A DNA stretch of 64,000 bases. Source: Escherichia coli (GTDB lineage: Bacteria; Pseudomonadota; Gammaproteobacteria; Enterobacterales; Enterobacteriaceae). Shown here piece after piece: positions 2,236-6,615 of this stretch; the first letter of the stretch is position 1; the number at the start of each line of letters is the position of its first letter. Under the pieces are notes generated by a model. The model was not told the origin of the DNA and did no database searches. It saw only the letters and a program-made list of their open reading frames with translations. The stretch lies in the NCBI RefSeq assembly GCF_044647545.1, contig NZ_CP172818.1. One strand, 5' to 3'. The position numbers and the translations under genes are program-made.

Positions 2236-3114
2236 TTAACGGCGTTTAGCCATCATTTCGTCGACGATATCGCCAAGTTGTTGTAATTTCGGTGCGCAAA
2301 CGTCACGCAGCATCAGCTCGTTGTCTGGTAAACCGACAACCGATGCCCAGACGGCACGACCAGCCAGGAAGCCCGATGCACCCGCTGTCATTGCCACGCG
2401 TACGGCACGCGGGAACAGTTTTTCGTCGACACCGGAAGAAAGTATCACCCACGGCATATTGATATGGTCATTCAGACGTTGTGAAGCACTGAGAAGCTCT
2501 TGTTGCGGACCTTTACCGTAAAGCGGCATTTCAACTTTGTAGAGGTCAGCGCCACTGTCGCCCAGCTCTTTGGCAGCATCGATGATCGCTTGTTCGCGAT
2601 CGAATTTATCGCCACGACGTGGTGGGCGGACGACTGGCTCAATAATGCTTACCAGGCCGTGTGAGTGGCACAGTTCGTTAAACTCTTTCACCATATCCAG
2701 ACGTTGCTGCGCATCTTCATCACTACGCCACAGCACCAGCAGTTTTAAGGCTTTGCCACCGTCTTGTTTGATTTGTAGCGGATTGATTTTGCGGTCAATG
2801 ACCACGCTATCTACCGGAATACCGTTGCCAGGAATGAACTCATCGGCGGCGACAATCATGGCGCAACTTTTGGCAATCGCGTTTTGCTCAACCACCTGGC
2901 GGTAACAGAATTGTTGATCTACCAGAATCGCCGAGGCATAAGGCGAGAGGGTCTTCGCCGCGTTAACTTTGAAATCAGTTAAAACGCTATCGGCTACCGG
3001 AGCGGGTGCGCCAGCCGCGGCAAACATCATGCGCATGGCTTCGCGCTGATCGACCGCCAGCATGGCAAAACCGCCCGATGCGCGCGTAATGTCGTTGATG
3101 GTGTACTTATTCAT
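2236..3114 (-). CDS. yihT: 6-deoxy-6-sulfofructose-1-phosphate aldolase
   Basis: 292 aa ORF, length and synteny match YihT. Confidence 0.9.
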
Positions 3115-3137
3115 TCATTTATTCCTTTATCCAGTCG

Positions 3138-4034
3138 TTACATTTTTACTTTGGCAGTCATCCCGGCACTGACACGGACCTGTTCCAGAATGGCGGACCA
3201 GTCCTGGCGACCGCGACCCGCTGCGCGCGCCTGGCTATAAACCTCCCGTGAGGCGGCCCCCAGCGGCATTGGCACATGCAGCTGGTTGGCGACATCAAGG
3301 GCGATACCAAGATCCTTATGGGCAAGATCGATCATGAAGGCGGGAGAAAGATCCCCGCTGAGGACTTTGTTTGGCCAGGAAGTGGTGAAGTGGCCTTTAC
3401 CGGCGGCGGTACCGCTCATCACCTTGACGGCAACATCGAAGGGAAGATTCAGGGCTTCGCACAAAACGGCGGCTTCTGCCGAAAGCGCATTGAGCGCGAT
3501 GCTCATGTAGTTGTTGATGAGCTTAACGCGGATCCCCATGCCCGGACCGCCCGCGTTGATCAACTCACTGCCCATCGCCATCAGGATCGGTGTGGCGCGT
3601 TCAACTTGTTCAGCGGTGCCGCCAGCCAGCAGTAACAGAGTACCGGTAATGGCATTTGCAGAAGTACGGCCTACCGGAACATCCATCATGCTGAAGCCTC
3701 TGGCCTGCATATCAGCAATCAATTTATCGGTTTGCAGTGGGTGGATGGTCGACATATCAATGACCAGCGCATCGGAAGATAAGCTCTCACAGACACCGTT
3801 TTCACCGAACAACACGTGACGCACCAGATCGCCATTCGGCAACATGGTAATGATAAATTCGGCACCTTTAGCGGCCTGCGCCGGGTTGGCGGCGGGAGTC
3901 GCACCTTTGTCTACCAGATGCCGCACAGCTTCGGCGTTCACATCAAAGACGCGAAGTTGATGCCCTTGCTGCAATAAATTGCTCGCCATTGGCGAACCCA
4001 TTTGCCCTAAACCGATAAACGCGATTGCTGCCAT
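3138..4034 (-). CDS. yihU: 3-sulfolactaldehyde reductase (NAD-binding, GxGxxG at N-terminus)
   Basis: 298 aa ORF starting [13 protein letters not shown] (Rossmann motif); synteny. Confidence 0.9.
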
Positions 4035-4201
4035 AACCCTCTCCTGAATACAGTAATGTCACTTTTTGTCATTTATGACATGCCTTGCTTGTCTGTTTTT
4101 GATCGTATTTGTAATTTATCGTCAAAAAATTGACAGCCGTCACTTTTTAAACAATTGGTGAAATTAAAATGAACGCATCCCAAAATGCTTAAGGAATGAC
4201 C

Positions 4202-5098
4202 ATGATTCGTGTTGCTTGTGTAGGAATTACCGTGATGGATCGCATCTATTACGTGGAAGGATTGCCGACGGAGAGCGGTAAATACGTGGCGAAAAATTAT
4301 ACGGAAGTTGGCGGCGGGCCAGCGGCTACAGCAGCAGTTGCGGCGGCCAGACTAGGTGCGCAGGTCGATTTTATTGGTCGCGTCGGTGACGACGACACAG
4401 GCAACAGCCTGCTGGCAGAGCTGGAATCCTGGGGCGTTAACACCCGTTATACCAAACGGTATAACGAGGCGAAATCTTCGCAATCCGCCATCATGGTGGA
4501 TACCAAAGGCGAGCGGATAATCATTAACTACCCCAGCCCGGACTTGCTGCCTGACGCAGAGTGGTTGGAGGAAATTGATTTCTCTCAGTGGGATGTTGTG
4601 CTGGCGGATGTACGCTGGCACGAAGGTGCTAAAAAAGCCTTCACCCTGGCCCGGCAGGCGGGCGTGATGACTGTTTTGGACGGGGACATTACGCCGCAGG
4701 ATATCAGTGAGCTGGTGGCATTAAGCGATCATGCGGCCTTTTCAGAACCGGGTCTGGCGCGCTTAACGGGGGTGAAAGAGATGGCCAGTGCGCTAAAACA
4801 GGCACAAACGCTCACAAATGGTCATGTCTATGTGACCCAGGGCAGTGCAGGCTGTGACTGGCTGGAGAATGGCGGGCGACAGCATCAACCGGCCTTCAAA
4901 GTTGATGTGGTAGATACCACAGGAGCGGGTGATGTTTTTCACGGCGCATTGGCGGTGGCGCTGGCAACAGGTGGGGATTTAGCGGAGTCAGTCCGCTTCG
5001 CCAGCGGAGTAGCGGCGTTGAAATGCACGCGTCCCGGTGGACGAGCCGGGATCCCTGACTGTGATCAAACCCGATCTTTTTTGTCACTTTTTGTATAA
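4202..5098 (+). CDS. yihV: 6-deoxy-6-sulfofructose kinase (PfkB/ribokinase family)
   Basis: ORF track 4196-5098; trimmed to ATG at 4202 with AAGGA RBS at 4191-4195; C-terminal GAGD motif. Confidence 0.85.
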   Translation: MIRVACVGITVMDRIYYVEGLPTESGKYVAKNYTEVGGGPAATAAVAAARLGAQVDFIGRVGDDDTGNSLLAELESWGVNTRYTKRYNEAKSSQSAIMVDTKGERIIINYPSPDLLPDAEWLEEIDFSQWDVVLADVRWHEGAKKAFTLARQAGVMTVLDGDITPQDISELVALSDHAAFSEPGLARLTGVKEMASALKQAQTLTNGHVYVTQGSAGCDWLENGGRQHQPAFKVDVVDTTGAGDVFHGALAVALATGGDLAESVRFASGVAALKCTRPGGRAGIPDCDQTRSFLSLFV

Positions 5099-5131
5099 AA
5101 TGCCAGGGTGATGGTTTTTCGAGGAATTTTC

Positions 5132-5917
5132 ATGAGCCTTACCGAACTAACCGGTAACCCGCGGCACGACCAACTCCTCATGCTGATCGCCGAGCGTGGG
5201 TATATGAATATTGATGAGCTGGCAAATCTGCTGGATGTCTCCACGCAGACGGTCCGCCGGGATATTCGTAAATTAAGCGAGCAAGGACTGATTACGCGCC
5301 ATCACGGTGGCGCGGGTCGGGCCTCCAGCGTCGTTAATACGGCGTTTGAGCAGCGTGAGGTTTCGCAAACTGAAGAGAAAAAAGCGATTGCCGAAGCGGT
5401 GGCAGACTATATTCCTGATGGATCGACAATATTTATCACCATCGGTACGACTGTTGAACATGTTGCCCGGGCGTTACTTAACCACAATCATTTGCGGATA
5501 ATCACCAACAGCCTGCGTGTGGCGCATATTCTTTACCACAACCCGCGCTTTGAAGTGATGGTGCCTGGCGGAACGCTGCGTTCCCATAACAGTGGGATCA
5601 TTGGCCCTTCAGCGGCGTCCTTTGTGGCCGATTTTCGCGCCGATTATCTGGTAACAAGTGTAGGCGCAATTGAGAGCGATGGCGCGTTGATGGAGTTTGA
5701 TGTAAACGAAGCTAACGTGGTGAAAACGATGATGGCGCACGCGAGAAATATTCTGCTGGTCGCCGATCACACTAAGTATCATGCTTCGGCGGCGGTTGAA
5801 ATTGGTAACGTGGCACAGGTTACCGCGCTCTTTACCGACGAGCTGCCGCCCGCTGCGCTAAAATCACGCTTACAAGACAGCCAAATTGAAATCATCCTTC
5901 CCCAGGAAGACACGTAG
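5132..5917 (+). CDS. csqR: DeoR-family transcriptional regulator of the sulfoquinovose operons
   Basis: ORF track 5108-5917; trimmed to ATG 5132 (GAGGA RBS at 5121-5125) giving 261 aa; N-terminal HTH, DeoR C-terminal domain. Confidence 0.85.
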   Translation: MSLTELTGNPRHDQLLMLIAERGYMNIDELANLLDVSTQTVRRDIRKLSEQGLITRHHGGAGRASSVVNTAFEQREVSQTEEKKAIAEAVADYIPDGSTIFITIGTTVEHVARALLNHNHLRIITNSLRVAHILYHNPRFEVMVPGGTLRSHNSGIIGPSAASFVADFRADYLVTSVGAIESDGALMEFDVNEANVVKTMMAHARNILLVADHTKYHASAAVEIGNVAQVTALFTDELPPAALKSRLQDSQIEIILPQEDT

Positions 5918-6015
5918 AATTTTGTGACCGTTGACCTGCCTTCATACCTGGCCACATAGCCAAACCCATCCTTTCCCGCTACAGTTAATTTCTTGTGGCG
6001 CGAAAGGAGGCAAAA

Positions 6016-6615
6016 ATGCTCTATATCTTTGATTTAGGTAATGTGATTGTCGATATCGACTTTAACCGTGTGCTGGGGGCCTGGAGCGATTTAACGCGTG
6101 TTCCACTGGCTACGCTTAAGAAGAGTTTCCACATGGGCGAGGCGTTTCATCAGCATGAGCGTGGGGAAATTAGCGACGAAGCGTTCGCAGAGGCGCTGTG
6201 TCATGAGATGGCCCTGCCGCTAAGCTATGAGCAGTTCTCCCACGGTTGGCAGGCGGTATTTGTTGCGCTACGACCGGAAGTGATCGCCATCATGCATAAA
6301 CTGCGTGAGCAGGGGCATCGCGTGGTGGTGCTTTCCAATACTAACCGCCTGCATACTACCTTCTGGCCGGAGGAATACCCGGAAATCCGTGATGCTGCTG
6401 ACCATATCTATCTGTCGCAAGACTTGGGTATGCGCAAACCTGAAGCACGAATTTATCAGCATGTTTTGCAGGCAGAAGGTTTTTCACCAGACGATACGGT
6501 CTTTTTCGACGATAACGCCGATAATATAGAAGGAGCTAATCAGCTAGGCATTACTAGTATTCTGGTGAAAGATAAAACCACCATCCCGGACTATTTCGCG
6601 AAGGTGTTATGCTAA
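6016..6615 (+). CDS. yihX: HAD-superfamily alpha-D-glucose-1-phosphate phosphatase
   Basis: ORF track 5995-6615; trimmed to ATG 6016 (AAGGAGG RBS 6004-6010) giving 199 aa; N-terminal DxG HAD motif. Confidence 0.85.

Follow-up and report, generated by a model that had tools for sequence, protein, structure and literature searches.

The yihU/yihV spacer and the nearby csqR promoter probably (we would put it at about 0.7) form the known operator-promoter module of the yih cluster, in which CsqR reads arrays of TGTCA-N-TTTTT boxes laid over all three promoters. Judging from the letters themselves, the recognition unit is most likely this asymmetric box (TTTTTGTCAY in its 10-bp register), with no dyad palindrome. 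The earlier note had recognised here a divergent control region, which gene annotation and published CsqR binding bear out, and had offered two inverted repeats within it as candidate CsqR operators. The observation is confirmed and its interpretation is in part supported, in a system that is already known: the GTCA-type half-site is indeed over-represented, but the palindrome is neither conserved nor beyond chance. Because the literature already covers the region and its regulator as well as effectors and mechanism of repression, our analysis adds only a refinement, namely that the palindrome is not the conserved element. All positions are those of the window, the whole 64-kb stretch of DNA analysed, in which the locus is laid out as follows.

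3138-4034, minus strand: yihU, with its start at 4034 (open reading frames and annotation)
4035-4201, 167 bp: divergent yihU/yihV spacer, the main CsqR target (open reading frames, annotation and published binding)
ATG at 4202, plus strand: yihV, its start as placed by the K-12 annotation
ATG at 5132: csqR (yihW), downstream of yihV and adjoining it

Several complete E. coli genomes, with yihT, yihU, yihV and csqR annotated, match the window at 100% identity from 3000 to 6000, and the reading frames from yihR to csqR are all open, in keeping with the claim that the cluster is intact from yihR to yihW. The spacer had been given as 160 bp; this is corrected to 167 bp because yihV starts at 4202, as in the K-12 annotation, the alternative ATG at 4196 in the list of open reading frames being absent from most other genera. 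It is equal in length to that of K-12 and differs from it by 3 substitutions in 167 positions, none of them within the repeats. YihU reaches the cut-off of the NCBIfam model for sulfolactaldehyde reductase; CsqR matches the GlpR, AgaR, SrlR, UlaR and DeoR models, best of all GlpR (256.6 bits, below the cut-off of that model), and this DeoR/GlpR-family regulator is encoded beside its own target. The yihV-csqR segment of the strain (4202-5917) is a minority haplotype, found at 99% identity or more in only 59 genomes; that of most E. coli, K-12 included, is about 96% identical to it. The yihR/yihS spacer also differs in length (928-967 in the window, about 40 unaligned nucleotides, against some 110 in K-12, at about 6394-6504 of the extracted locus), which points to an indel or a small inserted element in one strain or the other.

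Sulfoquinovose is among the most abundant organosulfur compounds, and the model pathway for sulfoglycolysis is that of the yih cluster, with CsqR as its switch. An exact operator grammar would help to predict the CsqR regulon in other bacteria and to design sulfosugar-responsive reporters.

CsqR (YihW) is a repressor of the DeoR family for which genomic SELEX found one strong target, the yihU/yihV spacer (PMC8249747). Binding to the spacer is also described in PMC12608037, and gel shift and AFM show it to be highly cooperative along the spacer DNA (PMC8006165). It requires a large molar excess of the protein and leads to aggregates (PMC8006165, PMC12608037), and sulfoquinovose, sulfoquinovosyl glycerol and sulforhamnose release CsqR from DNA (PMC8006165, PMC10991401). 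The protein binds its own promoter region as well (PMC12608037, PMC10991401). In Salmonella, deletion of yihW raises yihU expression about 100-fold, and the same study cites 'three yihW binding sites' in E. coli (PMC7922415). Transcription starts have been mapped at -25/-27 from the ATG for yihV, at -27/-28 for csqR and at several positions between -15 and -92 for yihU; RNA polymerase makes two complexes on the spacer fragment, and CRP binds the csqR region and, in vitro, this fragment (PMC5816610).

The position of CsqR on the chromosome is given by ChIP-exo (Gao et al. 2021), which detected a single dominant YihW site with a signal/noise of 168 at 4071641-4071681 (PMC8464067, supplementary file 5). 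We took these coordinates as U00096.2, because version 3 would put the interval inside yihS, because PMC5816610 gives the -25 start of yihV as 4071737 in U00096.2, and because the glpA peak of the same table fits only with the version-2 offset. Converted through the K-12 record, the peak extends from -121 to -81 from the yihV ATG, that is, over 4081-4121 of the window. It starts one base past the end of the palindrome (4080), ends 10 bp before the second candidate, TGACAGCCGTCAC, and overlaps neither, within the limits set by cooperative spreading and by peak calling. By the yardstick of the earlier note, footprint data that map elsewhere in the spacer, these positional data give its candidates no support, the interval adjoining the palindrome; for the spacer as a whole, gSELEX, gel shift, AFM and ChIP-exo all place the candidates in CsqR-bound DNA. 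The ChIP-exo table also lists a second YihW peak, weak at a signal/noise of 13.7, immediately before glpA, where the GlpR operators lie (NC_000913.3 2352300-2352800, at about 332-337 of that stretch). Together with GlpR being the best family match, this hints at a weak cross-recognition of GlpR-type operators by CsqR.

In a full-text literature search for the candidate sequences the only relevant match was a Salmonella cloning primer, and reviews and citing papers yielded no footprint coordinates for CsqR. Shimada et al. 2019 (Microbiology 165:78-89), which lay outside this search, reportedly holds DNase I footprints of CsqR; a box architecture at the nucleotide level, of which we saw none in the accessible literature, may be described there.

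Both strings quoted in the earlier note are present, and they share their ground with a direct repeat.

4067-4080, no strand: TGTCATTTATGACA, the first candidate, a perfect 6+2+6 inverted repeat; its left arm is the second conserved TGTCA box, its right arm (4075-4080) is lineage-specific
4057-4071, plus strand: direct repeat TGTCAC-TTTT-TGTCA (TGTCA-N5-TGTCA), two TGTCA boxes 10 bp apart
4131-4143: TGACAGCCGTCAC, the second candidate, at the junction of two back-to-back boxes, TGTCAATTTTT (minus) and CGTCACTTTTT (plus)

To follow these elements across species we scanned one genome per species and retained about 58 loci with the yihU / yihV-csqR arrangement, in genera from Escherichia, Citrobacter, Salmonella, Klebsiella and Enterobacter to Rahnella, Yersinia, Hafnia and Chimaeribacter. 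Fifty-three spacers were aligned (54 with the short-cassette spacer described below), and the four-fold-degenerate sites of yihV, which are 42% identical to E. coli and so close to saturation, served as the reference. Of the 54 spacers, 36 carry the direct repeat unaltered and 47 carry it when one mismatch is allowed; its mean identity to E. coli is 83% as against 42% at the four-fold sites. The palindrome, at the same tolerance of one mismatch, is found in 3 of 54 (E. coli, E. whittamii and C. amalonaticus); it is intact in the first two only and nearly so in the third, and E. albertii, which lacks it, reads TGTCATTTGTAATG. The right arm falls below even the four-fold sites (29% mean identity to E. 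coli against 42%), with a column conservation of 0-60% over the 53 aligned spacers. Since the direct repeat is widespread and the palindrome is confined to 3 of 54 spacers, the left arm is to be seen as the second tandem unit and the right arm as a recent addition, most likely an inverted TGTCA box of the E. coli/E. whittamii lineage and not an ancestral operator. Such a box may add one binding unit in that lineage.

Numbers within the window lead the same way. TGTCATTTATGACA has no other exact copy in the 64 kb, its pattern with up to two mismatches occurs 5 times where 2.7 are expected, and 1340 of 3000 dinucleotide shuffles of the spacer (45%) contain a perfect inverted repeat with 6-nt arms. 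A copy with up to two mismatches is absent from the csqR promoter (5040-5131), and the K-12 spacers ompL/yihO, yihO/P, yihP/Q, yihQ/R and yihR/S hold none with up to three; a search for the palindrome upstream of yihO and yihP, which the earlier note had proposed as a check, therefore comes out empty in the K-12 cluster.

These results bear directly on the proposal that both inverted repeats (TGTCAT/ATGACA at 4067-4080 and TGAC..GTCA at 4131-4143) are dyad operators, each taking a CsqR dimer. Some DeoR-family operators are palindromic, that of E. coli DeoR for one; both repeats do lie inside the CsqR-bound spacer, the palindrome is intact in all the E. coli compared and in E. whittamii while nearby bases vary, and TGACAGCCGTCAC is conserved. 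We nevertheless hold the proposal to be improbable. The order of the half-sites is opposite in the two repeats (GTCA-N4-TGAC versus TGAC-N4-GTCA), so that a single dimer geometry cannot suit both; neither repeat recurs at the csqR promoter or overlaps the ChIP-exo interval; and for the palindrome in particular, close to half of the shuffles produce one like it and the right arm is unconserved beyond one lineage. Among spacers with a conserved CsqR, conservation extends to TGACAGCCGTCAC and to the direct repeat at 4057-4071 but not to the palindrome; at the csqR promoter it is the 13-mer TGTCACTTTTTGT (4057 and 5082), and not the palindrome, that recurs. The second candidate sits in a nearly invariant block with its half-sites kept (the TGACA and GTCAC halves are conserved at 80-99%, the GCC linker at 50-60%).

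The preferred reading, of single boxes, takes in the following further elements.

4090-4125, plus strand: putative array of four head-to-tail 10-bp units (cores GTCT at 4091, GATC at 4101, GTAA at 4111 and GTCA at 4121), which includes TGTCTGTTTTT (4090-4100) and TTTGATCGTATTTGT (4098-4112) and coincides with the ChIP-exo interval
4125-4135, minus strand (that of yihU): box TGTCAATTTTT, a pattern match
4138-4148, plus strand: box CGTCACTTTTT, at about -38 to -28 of the yihV promoter as judged from the start in PMC5816610
5082-5094, plus strand: csqR promoter box TGTCACTTTTTGT, inside the last yihV codons and directly upstream of the -10
5096-5101: csqR -10 hexamer TAAAAT, transcription start at about 5104/5105 (PMC5816610)

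GTCA or TGAC occurs 7 times in the spacer where 1.45 are expected, a count reached by none of 2000 shuffles. The 10-mer GTCACTTTTT is present three times in the 64-kb window (4058, 4139 and 5083) as against 0.18 expected, always in one of the two CsqR-bound regions, and of the 8 matches to TGTCANTTTTT with at most one mismatch in the window, 5 fall within the 259 bp of these two regions. A repeat finder grouped TGTCACTTTTTG (4057), TGTCTGTTTTTG (4090) and CGTCACTTTTTA (4138) in one direct-repeat family, and TTTGTCATTTAT (4065) with TTTGTAATTTAT (4108) in another; direct-repeat families and pattern matches are what the putative array at 4090-4125 is drawn from. As the box pattern was derived from the very regions scored, these figures for enrichment are post hoc; independence of the derivation can be claimed only for the 13-mer common to both targets and for the conservation across species. 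The boxes at 4057/4067, 4091/4101/4111/4121 and 5083/5093 follow one another at 10 bp, about one helical turn, and would overlap the promoters. Across the window, TTTGT-N5-TTTGT is not enriched (7 against 5.4 expected), and the argument from phasing is hence one of local arrangement; T-rich words are common in promoter DNA. Division of the array at 4090-4125 into 10-bp units is our own parsing, and the units at 4101 (GATC) and 4111 (GTAA) are poor matches to the box.

The second CsqR target is the csqR promoter, where the 13-mer found at 4057-4069, TGTCACTTTTTGT, recurs exactly at 5082-5094. A shared word of this length arose in 5 of 2000 simulated sequence pairs, and the box covers about -23 to -13 of the promoter. 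In the other K-12 yih spacers (ompL/yihO, yihO/P, yihP/Q, yihQ/R and yihR/S) the 13-mer does not occur beyond chance, and an 11-mer weight matrix, to which we give little weight because it was trained on the boxes themselves, has zero matches there. This absence of palindrome and 13-mer elsewhere in the cluster agrees with the picture of a single target drawn by SELEX and ChIP-exo. Compared across about 50 species, the final 45 nt of yihV show hardly any synonymous change, whereas the codons immediately before them are free to vary; coding DNA is here clearly under regulatory constraint. Embedded in this coding end (5055-5101, GACTGTGATCAAACCCGATCTTTTTTGTCACTTTTTGTATAAAAT) are the promoter and operator of csqR. 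Yersinia and Hafnia have a degenerate TGTCAC box at that promoter.

The strongest conservation of the spacer is found in a block which contains, besides boxes, both divergent core promoters.

4088-4171, 84 bp: ultra-conserved core, with operator boxes and the two divergent core promoters
4121-4134: second perfect inverted repeat GTCAAAAAATTGAC (5+4+5), invariant across genera, which holds TCAAAAAATTG and TTGACA
4165-4170, plus strand: yihV -10 hexamer TAAAAT, transcription start at about 4175-4177

Nearly all positions of the core reach at least 90% column identity in the 53 spacers, and the core as a whole averages 90% identity to E. coli in genera that range from Escherichia to Yersinia and Hafnia. 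With 90% identity over 84 bp against 42% at the four-fold sites across genera, a GTCA enrichment equalled in 0 of 2000 shuffles, and binding shown experimentally, it is very hard to believe that the repeats are functionless accidents of AT-rich intergenic DNA. This explanation draws its support from the palindrome, which on its own is not significant; it is refuted for the region as a whole and continues to apply to the palindrome's right arm.

So invariant is the core that it carries no substitution pattern showing which bases matter, and its conservation, some of which the overlapping promoters must account for, could come from these promoters, CRP or an IHF-like site instead of CsqR. The conserved words would then be mainly signals for weak overlapping sigma-70 promoters, CRP and possibly IHF, and CsqR would read something else, or bind with little sequence specificity and spread from one nucleation site. 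The two RNA polymerase complexes, the several transcription starts and the CRP binding on the fragment (PMC5816610) fit this view, as do the large molar excess that CsqR requires and its aggregation on DNA. The yihV promoter is well placed: TAAAAT at 4165-4170 serves as its -10, promoter scoring puts the start at -25 in agreement with the published one, and every genus keeps a TAnnAT, in the form TAAAAT, TACAAT or TAAGAT. A scan of the spacer with the sigma-70 consensus gave no canonical promoter, and looser scoring gave weak candidates only, the TAAAAT at 4165 being the one that fits the published yihV start. TTGACA at 4130-4135 is a perfect -35 hexamer, but the promoter scans placed it in no strong sigma-70 pair. 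As for IHF, its core TCAANNNNTTR is matched on both strands by TCAAAAAATTG (4122-4132), which is invariant across genera and has an A/T-rich tract upstream; immediately 5' of this core stand CG (GG in most genera) where the full consensus, WATCAANNNNTTR, has WA. Involvement of IHF at the divergent promoters is possible.

For CRP we required at least 8 of 10 matches to TGTGA-N6-TCACA, with the key G/C positions and the N6 spacing, and the spacer contains no such site. The palindromes were rejected as CRP sites, since the best CRP-like matches are 7 of 10, miss the key G/C and, for the palindrome, have half-sites separated by N4 instead of N6; GTCAAAAAATTGACA has the N6 spacing of CRP with both key G/C positions mismatched. 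Adding to this that the identical 13-mer stands at the autoregulated csqR promoter, and that gSELEX and ChIP-exo are very specific for the yihU/yihV locus, we find promoter and global-regulator signals an unlikely explanation of the conserved words, if slightly less so than the dyad operators. In six loci of Yersinia, Hafnia and Buttiauxella, 20-125 extra bases separate the core from the yihV start; this insert, downstream of the yihV -10, opens with a common CATCGTGATC or CATGTGATCGG motif.

Returning to the box as the recognition unit, the specificity of gSELEX and ChIP-exo for a single locus argues for a specific, repeated recognition element. As published, CsqR binds the spacer, spreads cooperatively and blocks the divergent yihUTS and yihV promoters, and csqR itself is repressed from a related site at the yihV 3' end. 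The copies involved would be the tandem pair 4057/4067, the array at 4090-4125, the box at 4135-4125 on the yihU strand, that at 4138, and those at 5082/5092 for csqR. Published starts and promoter scoring suggest that boxes overlap the core promoters of yihV, yihU and csqR: TGTCAATTTTT would cover the -10 region of the distal yihU starts (-82 to -92, that is 4116-4126; PMC5816610), and the pair 4057/4067 would lie downstream of these distal starts and over the proximal ones. Each of the three promoters would have a box across its core, and CsqR, once bound, would keep RNA polymerase out. The large complexes of the gel shift and AFM experiments would come from arrays that contact one another cooperatively on one helical face. 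A stricter version, in which CsqR reads head-to-tail 10-bp TTTTTGTCAY units with one box per promoter and the 84-bp core is a jointly constrained module, we advance tentatively, at a little under even odds; the module would then comprise the four-unit array, the two back-to-back boxes, the two divergent promoters and possibly an IHF bend.

In the E. coli glp regulon, the operators of GlpR consist of tandem half-sites of about 10 bp that are bound cooperatively by a tetramer. The CsqR region resembles them in having several helically phased short repeats over divergent promoters and a sugar-derived inducer that frees the repressor; it differs in its repeat, TGTCA-N-T5 as opposed to a half-site of the TGTTCG type, and in its effectors, which are sulfosugars, the layout of the CsqR boxes being our reconstruction. 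E. coli DeoR, for its part, has 16-bp palindromic operators at several sites and forms loops as an octamer. DeoR, AgaR and UlaR share with CsqR the family, the multiple operators, the oligomerisation on DNA and the repression of divergent catabolic operons, whereas the true palindromes and long-range loops of DeoR contrast with the mainly direct repeats within about 90 bp of the CsqR region. The oligomeric states, an octamer for DeoR and tetramers on repeated sites for AgaR and UlaR, are as cited in PMC10991401. With the K-12 CsqR regulon (Shimada et al. 2019; Kaznadzey et al. 2018; Sharma et al. 2021; Gao et al. 2021) the comparison is one of identity: it is the same locus, with repression, effectors and cooperative binding as published, and we see no biological difference from the window.

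A natural variant of the system is offered by the short-cassette locus, of about 67% nucleotide identity, which is carried by 1327 of 5426 E. coli genomes. Its regulator in strain EC958 is 72% identical to CsqR overall and identical in the helix-turn-helix (residues 29-60), and the short-cassette regulator and K-12 CsqR bind each other's spacers (PMC12608037). An operator grammar might explain why short-cassette E. coli (Nissle, ST131) no longer respond to sulfoquinovose. In EC958 (2256-2427 and 3290-3363 of the extracted locus) the spacer keeps the central block GTCTGTTTTTGAGCATATTTGTAATTTATGTTCAAAAA and the regulator's own promoter keeps a TGTCACTTT box; toward yihU stand three TGACA boxes that point the other way, and a GTCA-N7-TGAC inverted repeat, GTCATTTAAATTGAC, lies near the kinase promoter. 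The single box thus persists while its orientation and spacing change, as expected if the box, and not a fixed dyad, is the unit.
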